Below, one piece after another: positions 5,038 to 15,064 of a stretch of 15,064 nt of DNA. The notes under the pieces were generated by a model. That model was not told where the DNA came from and did no database searches. It saw nothing but the letters and a program-made list of their open reading frames with translations. This DNA comes from a virus. Taxonomy: Duplodnaviria > Heunggongvirae > Uroviricota > Caudoviricetes. A program made the position numbers and the translations under genes. The stretch lies in IMG/VR virus record IMGVR_UViG_2778261705_000029, one strand, 5' to 3'. Within the stretch, counting starts at the first letter, position 1; every line of letters begins with the position of its first letter.

Positions 5038-5427
5038 TCAGGCGGCTGCACCCGCCGTTTTCTCGTACTTACTGATAGTGATCTCGACCTTCCCTTCCGG
5101 GATAACCGGTCCCCACTCCACCAGCATTCTTTTCACCTGACTGTCGTCTTCCCACACACCCGCGTGGGTCAGGGCGTCAAACAGCGCCTTGTTATAGTTG
5201 TCCAGATCGCGGATCCGGTTATCCGGAGGAAACAACACGATCTCCACTGAAGCAGGTGCCGACGTTGGTTTCGGCAGACGACGTAACTGCTCAACTATTG
5301 CTGCGCACGCCGCGCTCTGGAATTTTCGCCCCGCCGCGCTTATCAGGCTCTTACCAGCAAACGCCCCTTTGTTGGGGTGTCGCCAGTACGTGTTCACGCT
5401 GGGCGGAAAAGGCAGGATCAGCTTCAT
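5038..5427 (-). CDS. rusA: RusA-family Holliday-junction resolvase
   Basis: 129-aa protein with the RusA pattern (LPFPPSVNTYWRH ... RDLDNYNKALFDALTHAGVWEDDSQV). Start ATG 5425-5427 overlaps the upstream stop (ATGA coupling). Confidence 0.85.
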   Translation of the reverse strand: MKLILPFPPSVNTYWRHPNKGAFAGKSLISAAGRKFQSAACAAIVEQLRRLPKPTSAPASVEIVLFPPDNRIRDLDNYNKALFDALTHAGVWEDDSQVKRMLVEWGPVIPEGKVEITISKYEKTAGAAA

Positions 5428-5750
5428 ACTTTCAGGTCCCTCTCATGTAACCAGTGGGTTGCACGCAGCCTTGCGTTTTCCTCACCGGCAAGCAGTGCGC
5501 GGATAATCCCGACCGCCTCGCTGTCGTCGTCCTTCACCGCGATATGAAGCGTTATCCCCCGGGCCACGCCACGCTTTATCGTGATGACGCCTTTTTTCTC
5601 CAGTGCGCGAAGATGCTCCACCGCTGCATTCACTGAACGGTATCCCAGCATGGTTGCCACCTCCTGATTGGTTGGCGGGAAGCCACGTTCTTTCTGATAA
5701 GAAATCAGCATATCCAGCACCTGCTGCTGGCATTGAGTTAACGTCGTCAT
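5424..5750 (-). CDS. LexA N-terminal DNA-binding-domain homolog lacking the S24 peptidase domain (108 aa)
   Basis: Residues 1-70 align with the E. coli LexA winged-helix DBD, including the recognition-helix region (LexA RSPNAAEEHLKALARKGVI vs here RSVNAAVEHLRALEKKGVI). No Ser/Lys peptidase domain follows. ATGA coupling with the upstream methyltransferase gene. Confidence 0.7.
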   Translation of the reverse strand: MTTLTQCQQQVLDMLISYQKERGFPPTNQEVATMLGYRSVNAAVEHLRALEKKGVITIKRGVARGITLHIAVKDDDSEAVGIIRALLAGEENARLRATHWLHERDLKV

Positions 5751-7841: not shown

Positions 7842-8180
7842 CTATTTCCCTGAATTTACGACGAAACTGTTCGAGCGGGCTGAAGCACTCATGCTCATAG
7901 CCTTCGCGGAGGTAGATAACCCGTTGTGTTTCCGGTTCCCAACGAATGACTCTGACGGGCACTCCGTAGTGATCTTTGAACCAGCGGTTAACTTGTCGCA
8001 AAGGACTGTCTCCTTTTGCCTGTTGAAATCACCCACAGCCCACTCTGCAAAGCTGTGGGTTACAATTTCCCTGTCACCTGGTACATTCACTGCATAGCAA
8101 TACTCCACCTTCGCTTTTCCACCCGGTACAGGAAGTGCAATCAGTTGCGAGCGACGGTAGTGTGTTGTTAAACTGTTCAT
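7842..8180 (-). CDS. Hypothetical protein between the CII-like gene and O (extent uncertain)
   Basis: ATG 8178-8180 overlaps the upstream stop (ATGA). The N-terminal ~68 aa look protein-like, the C-terminal third is Ser-rich and low complexity. A + strand ORF (7831-8097) overlaps it, so the true coding frame is unresolved. Confidence 0.35.
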
Positions 8181-8728
8181 GCGTTAGTTTCTCCACAGTC
8201 ACGACACGCCACGGCGCCCGGAGCTGCACACTCGCGGGCGTCATTACTTTCTGAAATGCAAAAAATTTTGTAGACCAGTGCTGCATGCTCCTGCAGCTTC
8301 GAAATTGAGAGGTACAGCTCGTCGTTAATTGCTGTCTTCTCATGCGGTTCCACTACACCGTCTTCAATTGCTGAACGAATCTGTTTTGAATAACTGCCGA
8401 TCTGTTCAATGACCTCCAGCAGGCGTTGGTTGATATCGGCGTTGTCCACATCCTCGACATCAGGAAGAGACACAAAGACGCCATTTGCAGACTGCGCCAC
8501 AGCGTCAGCAATGAAGTGAGTTCCACCAGCACGTTGCAAAATCATTGCCCATCCCAGCGGGAAAATCTGATCGCCATCGGCACGAAGGCGGTTAAATAAT
8601 GCGTTCTCTGTTACATCCAGCCAGTCAGCAGCTTCAGCGTACCCCCCCGGCAACGCTGCGATAGTTTTTCTGACAGCTTTCACGTACCACTCAGGCTGTT
8701 TTTCTACTTTCCAGTGATGCTTACCCAC
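8177..8728 (-). CDS. CII-like regulator candidate (YdaT/CP76-type, 183 aa)
   Basis: GTG start 8726-8728 with strong AGGAGG RBS, overlapping the last codons of cro. Position directly after cro is the cII/YdaT slot. The family call rests on position and general resemblance only. Confidence 0.45.
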
Positions 8729-8981
8729 GGTTCACCTCCTGTTCCTGTGGTTTAAACCCATTCTGGTTTTGGCTAGATTGAAAACGTGCCGGATAAAGAA
8801 TCTGCATTTCGCTGACTTCACCCTTAAAAAAATTGGCTAAACGTTCTGCAAGCTCGATAGATGGAATCTGCTCCAGCCTCTCAATACGACTCAACGTCGC
8901 TGGATTGACTTGAACACCCGCAGCAACATGCTGCAAAGTGAAACCATGCGCCTTACGCACATTTCGTAATGGTGATTGCAT
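8721..8981 (-). CDS. cro: Cro-like HTH (XRE-family) repressor
   Basis: 86-aa helix-turn-helix protein (FTLQHVAAGVQVNPATLSRIE) transcribed divergently from cI; ATG 8979-8981 with GGAGGG RBS. Confidence 0.75.
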   Translation of the reverse strand: MQSPLRNVRKAHGFTLQHVAAGVQVNPATLSRIERLEQIPSIELAERLANFFKGEVSEMQILYPARFQSSQNQNGFKPQEQEVNRG

Positions 8982-9078
8982 ACGCCCTCCAAATATTGCG
9001 CGTTATGCATGTTATTTCACGCAATTATTTTGCGCAAGTTGATTTGCTTATCACGCAATAAAGAAATGTAATAAACGC
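8982..9078. promoter_or_regulatory. OR-like divergent promoter/operator region (pR for cro, pRM-like leaderless promoter for cI)
   Basis: TTGC-N7-GCAA-type sites at 8996-9010 (TTGCGCGTTATGCAT) and 9044-9058 (TTGCTTATCACGCAA), plus palindrome CGCAA-N5-TTGCG at 9020-9034. Candidate pRM: -35 TTGCTT 9044-9049, -10 TGTAAT 9067-9072, with the cI ATG at 9079 and no Shine-Dalgarno. Candidate pR on the minus strand: -35 TTGCGC, -10 TAACAT. Confidence 0.55.
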
Positions 9079-9771
9079 ATGAACATAGGAAACCGAGTCA
9101 GACAACTTCGCCAAGCGAAGAACATGAAAATCGCCGATCTCGCTGAAGCGATAGGAGTAGATGCGGCGAACATCTCGCGCTTAGAAACGGGTAAGCAAAA
9201 ACAATTTACCGAACAAACACTGAGTAATATTGCCAAGAGCTTAGGTGTTGATATTGCTGATCTCTTTACCTCTGCCCACAAAAGTAATACTGTATATAAA
9301 AACAGTAATAATGAGGATGTTGCGCAGGTGAAGGATGTGTTCCGTATTGAAATGCTGGATATCAGTGCCAGTGCGGGAAATGGCCTTATCCAGGGCGGTG
9401 ATGTCATTGATGTGATTCATGCCATCGAATACAGAACTGATAATGCTGTATCAATGTTCGGCGGACGACCAGCCAATCACATCAAAGTTATCAACGTTCG
9501 TGGGGACAGTATGTGTCCAACCATTGAGCCAGGAGATCTCATCTTCGTTGATGTCAGCATCAATCAGTTTGATGGTGATGGTATATATGTCTTTGGTTTT
9601 GATGACAAAATATACGTTAAAAGACTTCAAATGATTCCTGACAAACTGCTGGTGATTTCTGATAACCAGATTTACCGTGAATGGGGAATTACTAGCGAAA
9701 ACGAACACCGATTCATGGTCTTTGGAAAGGTCTTAATCAGTCAGTCGCAAACCCTTAAGAGACATAATTAA
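9079..9771 (+). CDS. cI: CI-like prophage repressor (N-terminal HTH plus C-terminal S24 LexA-like autopeptidase domain)
   Basis: N-terminal XRE HTH (VRQLRQAKNMKIADLAEAIGVDAANISRLETGK) and C-terminal S24 peptidase with the Ser nucleophile in GDSMCPTIEPGDLIFVD and the Lys in VKRL. Divergent from cro. Confidence 0.85.
   Translation: MNIGNRVRQLRQAKNMKIADLAEAIGVDAANISRLETGKQKQFTEQTLSNIAKSLGVDIADLFTSAHKSNTVYKNSNNEDVAQVKDVFRIEMLDISASAGNGLIQGGDVIDVIHAIEYRTDNAVSMFGGRPANHIKVINVRGDSMCPTIEPGDLIFVDVSINQFDGDGIYVFGFDDKIYVKRLQMIPDKLLVISDNQIYREWGITSENEHRFMVFGKVLISQSQTLKRHN
9288..9307. promoter_or_regulatory. Near-consensus LexA/SOS box inside the cI coding sequence
   Basis: TACTGTATATAAAAACAGTA against consensus TACTGTATATATATACAGTA: CTGT-N8-ACAG with TA flanks and an all-A/T spacer. 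It is the only CTGT-N8-ACAG I found scanning the window by eye. Lies in the linker-coding part of cI. Confidence 0.55.
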
Positions 9772-9791
9772 CCTCAATATCCCATCCATCG

Positions 9792-9812
9792 GCCACCGAA
9801 AGGTGGCTTTTT
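9792..9812 (+). terminator. Rho-independent terminator immediately downstream of cI
   Basis: Stem gccacc/ggtggc (9792-9797 / 9802-9807), GAAA tetraloop, then TTTTT (9808-9812). Confidence 0.7.
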
Positions 9813-9825
9813 ATTACCTATAAAT

Positions 9826-9876
9826 TTGCATATCTCGCAAATACCACTTGCATATCTCGCAATTTAATTTTATCTT
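9826..9876 (+). promoter_or_regulatory. OL/pL-like operator-promoter: two perfect 15-bp TTGCATATCTCGCAA repeats overlapping a sigma70 promoter
   Basis: Identical repeats at 9826-9840 and 9848-9862, same TTGC-N7-GCAA pattern as the OR sites. -35 TTGCAT 9848-9853, 17-nt spacer, -10 TATCTT 9871-9876, oriented toward the genes on the + strand. Confidence 0.55.
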
Positions 9877-10069
9877 TTATTCCAGACCAACTACAGGATT
9901 ACAACAAAATCTGGTTGCAACACGGTGCATGTGTCGTAAGCAGTCAGTAAATGTCAAAAACGAACAGGCAGGACGCCCACGAAGTAGCCGCCTGGGGCAT
10001 ATGAAGTCCAGGATGATTCGTTGAGTCATGTTGTGCCACTAGGCACTCATGTTAAAGCAGGTGTATGAA

Positions 10070-10345
10070 ATGAAAGTCCAGATTTTAAACAATAACTGTG
10101 AAGTCGTTTGGTCATACGACATAGCCGCCCCTGTAGATCAGAGCGGCGATAGCTGGACCAATGGGAAACATCAGATTATGGCTGGAGTTGTGTTCTCTTT
10201 ACGCCGTGCTTTAGAACAGGCTGAAGTCTTTCCATCAGACCCTGAATGGAAATGGCCTTTTTCTATTTGTCCAAATTCGGAGAGTACATTTCAGAAAATT
10301 GGTCAGAAAGTCGCACTCGAAGAGCATCAGCCAACTGTTTCCTGA
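10070..10345 (+). CDS. Hypothetical protein (91 aa), first gene of the pL-like operon
   Basis: ATG 10070-10072 with AGGTG RBS 6 nt upstream. Not arginine-rich, so not an obvious N homolog. 3' end overlaps the convergent minus-strand gene by 83 bp. Confidence 0.45.
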   Translation: MKVQILNNNCEVVWSYDIAAPVDQSGDSWTNGKHQIMAGVVFSLRRALEQAEVFPSDPEWKWPFSICPNSESTFQKIGQKVALEEHQPTVS

Positions 10346-10508: not shown

Positions 10509-10762
10509 TTGATTTTCCTTTTATGTATACGGGCTTAAAAGGATACCACCGAGCCTGAAGTGGTGAAAAGACAGGCACATAACAGCTAAGTATTTTCAAC
10601 CAGAGAGAATCCTTAGCGTTGTGGTGAATGCGGCTCAGCGCACGCGGGTTAAGGTTGAGGCTGACAGTCGACCTTCTGTGGATACCCACCCGCCTGGTGT
10701 GCAACCTTCGCCAGGCACCGGGAGGCACCCGGCACCACAACTTTATGCTGTGTGTAGTCTTA

Positions 10763-10808
10763 GCGGTACCAGCTTGTACCCTTGCTTCCGGCTGGTACCG
10801 TCCTTTTT
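10763..10808 (+). terminator. Terminator-like hairpin (10-bp stem, 17-nt loop, T-run) inside the non-coding island
   Basis: cggtaccagc (10763-10772) pairs with gctggtaccg (10790-10799), followed by tcctttttac. Confidence 0.4.
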
Positions 10809-10897
10809 ACAAAACAGAGAAGAGCATCACCGGACGACGGGCTCATAACCCAATCCATCCGGGCGGCTGCCACCGCAGGTGTTCTTCTCTGTTTTGT
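10809..10897. repeat. Long perfect inverted repeat (15 bp arms, 59-nt structured spacer); candidate structured RNA or cis element
   Basis: acaaaacagagaaga (10809-10823) is the exact reverse complement of tcttctctgttttgt (10883-10897); a further cacc/ggtg pairing lies inside. The region has no credible ORF. Confidence 0.5.
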
Positions 10898-11021
10898 GGA
10901 GAAACTAACCGCCCCTACGGGGGCATTTATGGAAATGTAATTGACTCAATAATCGCCGGACGGTGAGGGCTTCCTTTTACCCGAATTCAGCGCGGTGCAG
11001 CGCATATACGTGGAGAACAAA

Positions 11022-12216: not shown

Positions 12217-12566
12217 TGGAGCCATACAGCCTCACACTCGATGAGGCCTGTCATTTTCTCAAGATATCCAGACCGACTGCCATTAACTGGATACGCACAG
12301 GGCGTCTTCAGGCAACACGCAAAGATCCCACTAAGAATAAATCTCCTTACCTCACAACACGACAAGCCTGCATTGCGGCTCTTCAGTCTCCGCTGCATAC
12401 TGTCCAGGTGAGCGCGGGTGATGGCATAACAGAGGAAAGAAAATGTCACTCTTCCGCAGAGGTGAAATATGGTACGCCAGTTTCACATTGCCGAACGGTA
12501 AAAGATTTAAACAGTCTCTTGGAACAAAGGACAAAAGGCAGGCGACAGAACTCCATGACAAGCTAA
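12216..12566 (+). CDS. xis: Excisionase (Xis-like winged-helix); 3' end uncertain because the frame overlaps int
   Basis: ATG 12216-12218 with AAGAGGTG RBS and TAATG coupling. N-terminus [38 protein letters not shown] has the Xis/AlpA-like pattern. The frame runs to 12566, 124 bp into int. Confidence 0.55.
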
Positions 12567-13606
12567 AGGCTGAAGCATGGCGGGTCAGCAAACTTGGTGA
12601 AATACCTGATATAACGTTCGAGGAAGCGTGTGTCAGGTGGCTTGAAGAGAAAGCACATAAAAAATCGCTGGACGATGACAAAAGCCGGATCGGATTCTGG
12701 CTTCAACATTTCGCAGGAATGCAACTAAGAGACATTACTGAATCAAAAATTTATTCAGCAATGCAGAAAATGACGAACCGGCGTCATGAGGAAAACTGGA
12801 AACTCAGGGCAGAAGCATGCAGAAAAAAAGGGAAACCTGTTCCAGAATACACGCCAAAACCAGCGTCCGTTGCAACGAAGGCTACGCATCTTTCATTTAT
12901 AAAGGCCCTACTAAGAGCCGCAGAGCGTGAATGGAAAATGCTGGATAAGGCACCAATTATTAAAGTGCCTCAACCAAAGAATAAACGGATCCGCTGGCTG
13001 GAGCCCCATGAAGCACAAAGGCTGATTGATGAATGTCCGGAGCCATTAAAGTCTGTTGTTGAATTTGCACTGGCAACAGGCTTAAGACGCTCGAACATCA
13101 TCAACCTTGAATGGCAACAAATAGATATGCAGCGCCGGGTGGCATGGATAAACCCGGAAGAGAGTAAATCAAACCGCGCAATTGGCGTTGCGCTGAATGA
13201 TACTGCATGTCGCGTATTGAAAAAACAAATCGGGAATCATCACCGTTGGGTATTTGTGTACAAGGAAAGCTGTACCAAACCAGACGGAACGAAAGCGCCA
13301 ACAGTAAGGAAGATGCGGTATGACGCAAACACAGCCTGGAAAGCGGCGCTGAGACGGGCTGGTATTGATGATTTCAGATTTCACGACTTGAGACACACCT
13401 GGGCAAGTTGGCTGGTTCAAGCCGGAGTCCCGTTGTCAGTGTTACAGGAAATGGGAGGCTGGGAGTCTATCGAAATGGTTCGTCGATATGCTCACCTTGC
13501 ACCTAATCACCTTACCGAACACGCACGGCAAATAGACTCGATCCTGAACCCATCGGTCCCAAATTTGTCCCAGTCAAAAAATAAGGAAGGTACTAATGAT
13601 GTGTAA
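12443..13606 (+). CDS. int: Tyrosine site-specific integrase (lambda-family)
   Basis: 387 aa, AGAGGA RBS 6 nt upstream. C-terminal catalytic motifs HDLRHTWAS and VRRYAHL (Tyr nucleophile). Directly adjacent to the tRNA 3' end. Confidence 0.9.
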
Positions 13607-13620
13607 CTTATTGATTTTAA

Positions 13621-13696
13621 TGGTGCCGATAATAGGAGTCGAACCTACGACCTTCGCATTACGAATGCGCTGCTCTACCAACTGAGCTATATCGGC
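13621..13696 (-). tRNA. thrW: tRNA-Thr (anticodon CGU)
   Basis: 76-nt reverse complement gccgatatagctcagttggtagagcagcgcattcgtaatgcgaaggtcgtaggttcgactcctattatcggcacca: 7-bp acceptor stem, anticodon loop TTCGTAA, T-loop GGTTCGA, encoded CCA end. Immediately downstream of proA. Confidence 0.85.
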
Positions 13697-13810: not shown

Positions 13811-15064
13811 TTACGCACGAATGGTGTAATCACCAATGCCGATCCACTTGTAAGTGGTCAGTGCTTCCAGCCCCATTGGGCCACGCGCGTGGAGTTTTTG
13901 TGTGCTTACCGCCACTTCCGCACCCAGTCCAAACTGGCCGCCGTCGGTAAAACGCGTAGAGGCGTTAACGTAAACAGCGGACGAATCCACTTCGTTAACA
14001 AAACGCTGGGCGTTGCGCATATCGCGGGTCAGGATCGCATCGGAGTGTTGCGTGCCGTGTTCACGAATATGGGCGATGGCATCGTCAAGATCGCTGACGA
14101 TTTTGACGTTCAAATCTAATGACAGAAACTCATCGTCATACTCTTCGGCTTTAACCGCCACCACCTTCGCAGGGCCTGTCTGCAACTGCGCCAGCGCAGA
14201 TGCATCTGCGTGTAACGTCACGCCGCTTTCCGCCATTTGTTTGCTTAATGCGGGCAGGAAGCTATAGGCGATGTTTTTATTCACCAGCAACGTTTCTACC
14301 GTATTACATGTGCTCGGACGCTGAGTTTTCGCATTGACGATTACTTTCAGGGCTTCAGCAATCTCTGCACTTTCATCAACATAAATATGGCATACGCCTA
14401 TACCACCTGTGATCACCGGGATCGTCGACTGCTCGCGGCACAGTTTATGCAAACCAGCCCCGCCGCGCGGGATCAGCATGTCGATGTATTTATCCATACG
14501 CAGCATTTCACTGACCAGCGCACGGTCAGGATTATCAATCGCCTGCACGGCACCCGCCGGTAAGCCACAGGATTTCAGGGCGTCCTGAATCACCACCACC
14601 GTTGCCGCGTTAGTGCGACAGGTTTCTTTGCCACCACGCAGGATCACCGCGTTACCGGTTTTCAGGCACAGCGAAGCGACATCAACCGTCACGTTCGGGC
14701 GCGCTTCATAAATCACGCCAATAACCCCCAGCGGTACGCGACGACGCTCAAGACGCAGGCCGCTGTCCAGTACGCCGCCATCGATTACCTGCCCCACTGG
14801 ATCGGCGAGGTTGCACACCTGACGTACATCGTCGGCAATGCCTTTCAGCCGTGCGGGCGTCAGTGCCAGACGGTCAAGCATCGCTTCGCTAAGGCCATTG
14901 GCTCGCGCGTCAGCAACATCCTGGGCGTTAGCGTTGAGGATGATTTCGCTTTGTGCTTCCAGTTCATCGGCGATTTTTTCCAGCACGCGATTTTTTTCGC
15001 GGCTGGAGAGTTGCGCTAATTTATACGAGGCTTGCTTCGCGGCAATGCCCATTTGTTCCAGCAT
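13811..15064 (-). CDS. proA: Gamma-glutamyl phosphate reductase (complete, 417 aa)
   Basis: Full-length translation starting [13 protein letters not shown] at the window edge, recognised as E. coli ProA, ending GDYTIRA. Confidence 0.9.

Follow-up and report, generated by a model that had tools for sequence, protein, structure and literature searches.

Why should the gene for a prophage repressor that carries the apparatus for its own RecA-stimulated cleavage also contain a binding site for LexA? The question is raised by the viral record IMGVR_UViG_2778261705_000029, a stretch of 15,064 nucleotides (hereafter the window, meaning the whole stretch that was analysed) in which the coding sequence of a CI-type repressor gene, cI, holds the palindromic 20-mer TACTGTATATAAAAACAGTA, a LexA (SOS) box. 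All of the evidence considered here is comparative and computational. It indicates that the box is maintained at the level of the DNA, and we hypothesize, at roughly even odds (a probability of about 0.5), that the box controls a LexA-repressed gene nested in frame within cI, which would give the C-terminal domain of the repressor alone during the SOS response.

The LexA box within cI

The repressor gene and its box lie at the following positions.

9079-9771, plus strand: cI, a 230-residue prophage repressor with helix-turn-helix (HTH; XRE) and Peptidase_S24 domains (open reading frame, domain matches, 100% amino-acid identity to SfII CI)
9288-9307, no strand assigned: LexA (SOS) box TACTGTATATAAAAACAGTA, palindromic, cI codons 70-76 (matrix score, operator identity, conservation)

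The box is read in frame as N-T-V-Y-K-N-S (codons 70-76) and sits in the stretch that encodes the linker between the HTH_3 domain (PF01381, E = 1.2e-11, residues 3-64) and the Peptidase_S24 domain (PF00717, E = 6e-19, residues 104-218). It is the sole CTGT-N8-ACAG in the window. Shuffled sequences lead one to expect 0.16 such patterns, with at least one in 27 of 200 shuffles; the bare pattern is mildly improbable, and the full 20-mer far more so.

The 20-mer matches the consensus of the gamma-proteobacterial LexA box, TACTGTATATATATACAGTA, at 18 of 20 positions, and it is identical to the umuDC operator of Escherichia coli MG1655 (locus L002, 330-349). The umuDC operator is regarded as among the tightest LexA sites. 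The sbmC operator, as given in Table 4 of PMC3009722, has the same sequence again. Scored with a position weight matrix made from 16 K-12 LexA sites, TACTGTATATAAAAACAGTA reaches 28.3 bits, level with the best known sites including umuDC and sbmC; a matrix made without umuD and sbmC gives it 26.8 bits, and a single known site then scores higher. The runner-up LexA-like site in the window scores 8.7 bits. Judged by its sequence, the box is as strong as LexA sites get.

The original prediction had described a near-consensus LexA box, the only CTGT-N8-ACAG in the window, embedded in the linker-coding part of the gene for a lambda-type CI. The coordinates and domain limits bear out its location, the pattern scan its uniqueness, and the matrix score, equal to that of validated operators, its quality. 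The repressor is likewise of the lambda type that cleaves itself, with HTH_3 and Peptidase_S24 domains, Ala99-Gly100, Ser144 and Lys181 all invariant in the protein alignment (A1), a divergent cro gene and TTGC-N7-GCAA operators.

Selection on the box at the DNA level

Relatives of CI were gathered from genome, viral and metagenome collections at 319 loci, which reduce to 155 distinct coding sequences. The first viral and metagenome scans returned nearly only identical proteins, and diversity came from a species-level genome scan and from alignments led by divergent members. For the statistics we used a non-redundant set of 38 genes, from which sequences of 90% or greater nucleotide identity were removed and two loci (L098 and L103) were excluded.

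Of the 155 distinct homologous cI genes, 152 have a LexA box, always at the same codon position and with a median of 25 bits. Its carriers reach down to 50% protein identity and come from more than 15 enterobacterial genera, among them Escherichia, Shigella, Salmonella (ST64B sb38), Citrobacter (phiNP), Klebsiella, Kluyvera, Trabulsiella, Buttiauxella, Pantoea, Mixta, Rosenbergiella, Serratia, Proteus and Cronobacter (ENT47670, 50% identity). Apart from the box, the linker varies more than any other part of cI: across the set of 38, mean pairwise identity falls from 84% in the box to 49% and 37% in the adjoining 20-nucleotide flanks, with 69% over the gene as a whole.

The constraint is most visible at synonymous sites. 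Third-position identity over the seven box codons is 0.88, the top value among all seven-codon windows (median 0.43), and the information content of third positions is 1.4-1.8 bits in the box but 0.1-0.6 bits in the flanks. Thr71 is encoded by ACT in 37 of 37 genes (family usage 29%), Val72 by GTA in 35 of 38 (19%), Tyr73 by TAT in 28 of 28, and Ser76 by AGT in 37 of 38 (12%), never by TCN. Where the protein does change, the nucleotides stay: the amino acid at position 75 may be N, D, H, Y, S, T or P, yet the third base of its codon is always C; at position 70, S, N, T, D, I and P all occur, with a third base that is nearly always T. The box itself keeps CTG and CAG without exception while its centre drifts, and some right arms read CCAG, a variant also known from bona fide LexA sites. 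Its information profile correlates with that of the E. coli LexA motif (r = 0.67).

A scan of seven more distant repressor genes, of the HTH-S24 type or related, gave no site above 11 bits (genes of ST101-KPC2phi6.1, BTP1 c1, HK022, HK639, Stx2_EH1846, PHL101 and SfV cI), and the box thus marks one clade, with at least 50% identity to the CI described here. Among at least 120 viral contigs containing TACTGTATAT-N4-ACAGT (the matches listed), no other repressor family has such a box in its linker.

By this pattern of conservation the box is kept by selection acting on the DNA across the whole family, and is neither a chance occurrence nor a relic. Purifying selection of this strength implies that the box does something. 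The expectation that homologues would keep the box through synonymous drift is strongly upheld, and the suggestion of extra SOS-linked control through the box gains support from family-wide selection on the DNA itself.

A candidate in-frame start downstream of the box

Past the box, and before the predicted cleavage site of CI, lie the elements of a candidate second translational start.

9314-9317, plus strand: Shine-Dalgarno (SD)-like GAGG, 10 nucleotides before an in-frame GTG (anti-SD duplex energy -6.4 kcal/mol upstream of 9328)
9328-9771, plus strand: proposed nested open reading frame (ORF), GTG (Val84) to the cI stop, 147 residues (in-frame SD and start conserved in the family)
9373-9378, plus strand: Ala99-Gly100 codons (GCG GGA), predicted site of autocleavage stimulated by activated RecA (RecA*; invariant in alignment A1)

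The proposed 147-residue product would consist of a 16-residue arm before the Ala99-Gly100 site, followed by the S24 domain. An SD (taken as a duplex energy of -5.9 kcal/mol or lower) with an in-frame ATG or GTG is found between the box and Ala99-Gly100 (codons 77-99) in 36 of the 38 homologues, against 0-7 of 38 in other 23-codon windows of cI. When synonymous codons were resampled with the proteins kept, 7.3 genes were predicted to have such a start, and the maximum in 20,000 simulations was 17. Frame +1 offers no rival to the cI frame, since ORFs or ATGs that follow the shared SD in that frame span only 1-28 codons and are not conserved.

The position of the start differs by clade: codon 84 here, 87 in many members and 95 in one large clade. 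Because the clades use different positions, this looks like a function that has been maintained repeatedly and not a single inherited accident. A conserved start at Val87 alone was considered and rejected, as about a quarter of the members have GTA or GTT there; the signal is an SD-backed start within codons 84-95.

The start also appears to follow the box. ENT47670, which has the box, has GTG87 behind a very strong SD (-11.2 kcal/mol). In a Dryocola repressor gene (L098) the box is lost and there is no in-frame start at all, and a relative of this gene (L099) has a degenerate box and only an ATG without SD. Six of seven box-less relatives that were tested lack an SD-backed start (ST101-KPC2phi6.1, BTP1, HK022, HK639, Stx2_EH1846 and L098). 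The in-frame start thus appears mostly to track the presence of the box, PHL101 excepted.

A candidate internal promoter

Both strands of the 38 genes were scanned with a sigma-70 weight matrix whose frequencies are approximate. Two hexamers emerged as a candidate promoter.

9265-9270, plus strand: -35-like hexamer TTTACC (codons L62-F63-T64) of the proposed internal promoter (sigma-70 scan)
9288-9293, plus strand: -10-like hexamer TACTGT of the proposed internal promoter, formed by the left arm of the box (sigma-70 scan, umuDC geometry)

The sense-strand arrangement TTTACC-17-TACTGT averages 7.7 bits over the 38 homologues. It is the only promoter-like arrangement that both overlaps the box and exceeds the 99.9th percentile of all positions, which lies at 7.3 bits; the best minus-strand arrangement averages 4.4 bits over the family, at about the 99th percentile. 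The region upstream of K-12 umuD has matching geometry (TTGATC-17-TACTGT), and a 47-bp umuDC-derived fragment, TTGACA-17-TACTGTATATAAAAACAGTA, works as an SOS-inducible promoter (PMC9074414). A transcript from the cI hexamers would be expected to start near 9300, 20 nucleotides separating the box from the GTG at 9328 as compared with 19 from box to start in K-12 umuD.

The original prediction had named an internal promoter, an antisense promoter and a roadblock as possible consequences of the box, and had noted that its A/T core resembles a -10 element. From the umuDC-like geometry and the co-evolving ribosome-binding site (RBS) and start, the internal sense promoter appears to be the best supported of the three, the other two less so. 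The A/T core does not hold up as the best -10 candidate: its TGT variants lose the key A, TATAAA lacks the final T, and TACTGT, 17 nucleotides past TTTACC, scores best.

Proposed mechanism

We propose the following course of events for a nested gene under LexA control. In an unstressed lysogen, LexA would occupy 9288-9307 and so cover the -10 hexamer TACTGT of the weak sense promoter TTTACC-17-TACTGT. After DNA damage, cleavage of LexA would allow transcription from near 9300; ribosomes would load at GAGG (9314-9317), initiate at the GTG at 9328 and read to the cI stop. The product, of roughly 16 kDa, would be the 147-residue C-terminal dimerisation and autoprotease (S24) domain with a short arm retaining the Ala-Gly site, an architecture like that of UmuD. 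Lacking the DNA-binding domain, this short form could pair with full-length CI to give dimers with a single HTH, whose operator binding would be weakened early in SOS. In other words, a fast input at the level of LexA would be laid on top of the slower RecA*-stimulated cleavage of CI. The occupancy by LexA, the activity of the promoter, the short product and its role are all inferred from comparison of the genes.

The most likely role of the short form would be to modulate induction. We tentatively suggest that it is a "poison subunit" induced by SOS, that is, an antirepressor encoded inside the repressor gene with its LexA-repressed promoter, RBS and start hidden in the linker. We favor this role by analogy with known LexA-controlled antirepressors (PMC3121763). 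A serious alternative is that the short form serves as a decoy for RecA* and delays induction, similar in effect to the Hex protein of phage 434, because the internal RBS would be read on the mRNA from the repressor maintenance promoter (PRM) too.

Several points weigh against the nested gene as we describe it. The internal promoter is without independent support, and neither hexamer counts as proof of it. TTTACC is set by the conserved residues Leu-Phe-Thr and is free of extra synonymous constraint; the choice of TTT for Phe63 was considered as a sign of a selected -35 and rejected, as TTT is equally frequent at other Phe sites. The -10 belongs to the box, so that binding of LexA alone would conserve TACTGT. 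The hexamers match the consensus at only four of six (-35) and three of six (-10) positions. A strict consensus promoter scan of 8600-10100 found none, and is uninformative because it also misses PRM and the rightward promoter PR. As for translation, the internal start varies in position, an SD-backed ATG occurs in the box-less PHL101, and the short form may not be strictly specific to SOS, given that its RBS would be available on PRM mRNA. The 38 sequences share ancestry, so that our statistics overstate their independence. Finally, the direction of the effect, whether the short form would promote or delay induction, is a guess from analogous systems.

Alternative explanations

It is improbable, in our judgement, that the box instead represses an antisense promoter. 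Under this explanation a minus-strand transcript would run from the box through the 5' half of cI and on in the direction of PR and cro, lowering cI by interference or RNA pairing and adding CI-independent transcription toward cro. It would resemble lambda oop, an antisense RNA reportedly under LexA control. The palindrome offers identical arms on both strands, the window does contain a minus-strand -10 (TACAGT) with a -35 (TCCTCA), and read-through into cro, to the left of cI on the minus strand, would be co-directional with PR. However, the 4.4 bits of this arrangement are clearly below the 7.7 of the sense arrangement, its -35 would land in the hypervariable and indel-prone linker, and no conserved antisense ORF or RBS accompanies it (6 of 38 genes, none in the window). 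Equally unlikely is an operator without a promoter, at which LexA bound within the gene would form a roadblock or an occupancy signal to RNA polymerase that arrives from PRM or from the establishment promoter PRE; full-length cI would be held down in unstressed cells and released in early SOS, buffering the lysogen against mild damage. This explanation takes comfort from the identity of the site with the umuDC operator, from the restriction of unambiguous DNA-level constraint to the 20-bp box, and from the lack of independent support for the hexamers. Yet more repressor synthesis during SOS would oppose induction in phages that keep an intact autocleavage apparatus. The antisense promoter and the roadblock are both weaker than the nested gene because neither accounts for the co-evolving in-frame start: the former leaves the co-occurrence of sense SD and start with the box unexplained, and the latter their family-wide presence downstream of the box as well as their loss together with it.

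A nested gene might also exist and do another job, either as a RecA* decoy or cleavage inhibitor that delays induction in the manner of 434 Hex, or as a UmuD'-like partner of host UmuC, as phage P1 HumD is; we consider this doubtful. The closest solved S24 relatives are UmuD and UmuD' (PDB search, E = 2e-4; pairwise BLASTP, 36% identity over 83 residues), and there are weak NCBIfam matches to UmuD (E = 7e-8) and HumD (E = 2e-4). A second product of the cI transcript able to block RecA-stimulated cleavage has a precedent in Hex (PMC3564112), and use of the internal RBS on PRM mRNA would fit a role in stabilizing lysogeny. Against this, the NCBIfam scores fall far under the family cut-offs, the nearest relatives of the domain are two-domain CI-type repressors and not UmuD proteins, no umuC lies in the window, and known LexA-controlled phage genes that act on repressors (Tum and the Gifsy antirepressors; PMC3121763) promote induction. 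Least probable by a wide measure is that the 20-mer is conserved for reasons other than LexA: as a protein motif T-V-Y-x-N-S, as an mRNA hairpin, as a recombination "linker" between modules or as an inert relic of a past umuD fusion. T71, V72 and S76 are indeed invariant in the protein alignment, the 20-mer can form a 6-bp hairpin, and umuD-like genes of phages and plasmids have the same box 5-9 codons before their ATG, some of them in the TVYKNS frame. But codon choice is frozen far past what the protein needs, with residues 70 and 75 varying over constant nucleotides, and conservation within the box is distributed as in the LexA motif; the sequences flanking the box are unlike those of umuD, the domain is closest to CI-type repressors, and a relic would not persist so long in a linker that is otherwise 37-49% identical. 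To judge by the conservation pattern, the protein motif and the relic are essentially excluded. The same pattern argues against a recombination linker and against an RNA hairpin, the latter because the CCAG right arms, which are normal in LexA sites, would break it.

Comparison with UmuD, antirepressors and other systems

The proposed nested gene has its closest likeness in umuDC of E. coli. The two share an identical 20-bp operator, the proposed geometry of a -35 and a -10 TACTGT 17 nucleotides apart, nearly the same distance from box to start, and an S24 protein with a short N-terminal arm that carries the cleavage site. They differ in that the unit here lies in frame inside a larger repressor gene, and its flanking DNA is unrelated. 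No umuC-type polymerase gene is present in the window or in Shigella phage SfII, and the 147-residue product falls below the UmuD and HumD family thresholds (NF007621, 32.5 bits against a cut-off of 110; NF051876, 21.4 against 120). Among 1.8 billion representative proteins, the nearest relatives of the C-terminal domain are two-domain repressors of 210-260 residues. We also considered an origin by recent fusion with umuD, and the unrelated flanks and CI-type domain relatives do not support it. The nested unit would thus appear to work like a umuD-type SOS unit, yet its product would not be UmuD.

Stand-alone umuD-like genes of phages and plasmids (viral contigs L363, L412 and L447) have a TACTGTATAT-N4-ACAGT box 5-9 codons upstream of their ATG among the matches listed. 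Three of five such cases among these matches are in frame and read T-V-Y-K-N-S, as in the cI linker; this is not significant. PHROG family phrog_6201 (about 121 residues, "CI-like repressor") matches only the C-terminal domain (window 9409-9756, E = 6e-45), as do several representatives of 104-165 residues in the search of 1.8 billion proteins. Some of these short entries may be real stand-alone proteins, or gene calls from internal starts, and not fragments.

Antirepressors under LexA control, such as Tum of phage 186, those of Gifsy-1 and Gifsy-3 (PMC3121763) and AntC of N15, resemble the proposed system in that a LexA box places a phage gene acting on the immunity repressor under SOS, and cleavage of LexA rather than of the repressor would be the first trigger. 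However, the known cases are separate small genes, unrelated to the repressor, in phages with non-autocleavable repressors, whereas the candidate here is an in-frame isoform of cI itself and CI keeps its Ala-Gly, Ser and Lys autocleavage apparatus.

With lambda CI and other autocleaving proteins of the LexA type, the repressor shares its HTH and S24 domains, Ala-Gly site and Ser-Lys dyad, as well as the divergent cro, the right and left operators (OR and OL) and a PRM mRNA that is probably leaderless. Lambda cI is not known to carry a LexA box. Gene c of Streptomyces phage phiC31 has internal promoters and starts that give N-terminally truncated, in-frame forms of its repressor, although that repressor is of another protein family, is not tied to LexA or SOS, and acts in a host of another phylum. 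Phage 434 offers a further parallel in Hex (PMC3564112), a second protein that modulates RecA-dependent induction and whose coding sequence lies within or overlaps the repressor gene.

The prophage and its immunity region

The window matches E. coli O157:H7 strain FRIK2455 at 100% identity and covers the immunity and early region of a lambdoid prophage, whose insertion site is tRNA-Thr (thrW), beside proA. Its 1.5-kb cI-cro region shares 99.3% identity with SfII. The remaining features of the repressor and its surroundings are as follows.

8177-8728, minus strand: cII-like gene, opposite in direction to cI (domain match)
8721-8981, minus strand: cro-like HTH gene, divergent from cI (annotation of SfII, domain match)
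8982-9078, no strand assigned: OR region with operator TTGCTTATCACGCAA (9044-9058) and related half-sites (repeat search)
9508-9510, plus strand: codon of Ser144, catalytic serine in GDSM (invariant in A1, S24 domain match)
9619-9621, plus strand: codon of Lys181, general base in VKRL (invariant in A1, aligned with the VKKL segment of UmuD)
9791-9808, plus strand: intrinsic terminator, common to cI and the proposed nested transcript (terminator scan, annotated in SfII)

The segment of CI that holds Ser144 and Lys181 can be aligned to UmuD. An AlphaFold model of CI was too poor to be used (mean predicted local distance difference test score, pLDDT, of 47). The immunity-region context expected of a CI-type repressor is present, with a divergent cro, repeated operators, cII and int/xis. 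Just past the cI terminator, TTGCATATCTCGCAA occurs as two identical 15-bp direct repeats (9826-9840 and 9848-9862) that lie 22 bp apart, and the intergenic TTGCTTATCACGCAA between cI and cro is a third copy, 87% identical. These TTGC-N7-GCAA repeats are probably the CI operators of OL and OR. Directly after the box, ATGTTGCGCAGGT (9317-9329) resembles the OR segment ATTTTGCGCAAGT (9027-9039) at 85% over 13 nucleotides, which is probably a chance match in the variable linker.

The ATG of cI (9079) has no SD (duplex energy with the anti-SD of 16S rRNA, -0.6 kcal/mol), and a -10-like TGTAAT (9067-9072) stands 7 nucleotides before it with TTGCTT 17 nucleotides further upstream. Because the ATG lacks an SD and follows TGTAAT so closely, the PRM mRNA of cI is probably leaderless, as in lambda. 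If it is, ribosomes on that mRNA could use the internal SD-backed start no less efficiently than the full-length one. Two public records, Stx2a_WGPS2 (L339) and phiNP (L341), start the repressor at the internal Met16 (215 residues) and not at the conserved MNIGN start (230 residues), which cuts off the first 15 residues at the beginning of the HTH domain.

The integrase gene (12443-13606, plus strand) is directly followed by tRNA-Thr (CGT) (13621-13696, minus strand), with proA beyond (13811-15064, minus strand); insertion at thrW is the SfII-type attachment. The annotation of FRIK2455 includes a frameshifted hypothetical gene in the early-left region (locus L337, 11022-11341; about 10621-10940 of the window), and for this reason the prophage may be partly decayed.

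A phage-encoded LexA-domain protein

The window also encodes a stand-alone LexA DNA-binding domain protein of 107 residues (5424-5750, minus strand; PF01726, E = 1.7e-18) that has no S24 domain. Its gene lies in the PR operon between dam and rusA. The protein is 43% identical to residues 3-86 of E. coli LexA, and its recognition helix is nearly intact (RSVNAAVEHLRAL compared with RSPNAAEEHLKAL). By this resemblance it could be a non-cleavable LexA mimic that binds LexA boxes, the cI box included, in lytic growth. The gene is found in SfII, mEp460 and Stx2a phages, and also together with the SfV, SfIV, Stx2c and cdtI immunity types. Linkage of this gene to box-bearing cI was rejected, since other immunity types have the gene and the ST64B, phiNP and Klebsiella records with this cI lack it.

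Abundance and implications

This repressor family is common. At least 80% of the 1.5-kb cI-cro region is present in 1037 of 5426 complete E. coli genomes (about 19%), and members of the family include the serotype-converting Shigella phage SfII, Salmonella ST64B, mEp460, Klebsiella and Citrobacter prophages, and several phages that convert to Shiga toxin 2a (Stx2a). The one Stx2a phage that was checked, Stx2a_WGPS2, has an identical box and GTG84. Full-text searches of the literature outside most subscription journals turned up no account of a LexA box or nested gene for repressors of this family, and an earlier description is possible. The finding builds on known kinds of system, namely SOS-controlled antirepressors, autocleavable CI repressors and nested repressor isoforms.

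Usual accounts of damage-driven prophage induction invoke either self-cleavage of the repressor on RecA*, as in lambda, or a separate antirepressor under LexA control, as in 186 and Gifsy. The locus described here suggests a third arrangement, in which both inputs would meet at one gene and the product controlled by LexA would be a truncated form of the repressor. If this is true, a large family of phages would be induced through fast cleavage of LexA plus the slower RecA*-stimulated cleavage of CI. Since Stx phages release their toxin upon induction, an extra SOS input could alter how antibiotics trigger toxin production. The locus would also provide an example of a transcription-factor site, and probably of a whole expression unit, kept inside a coding sequence through the choice of codons.

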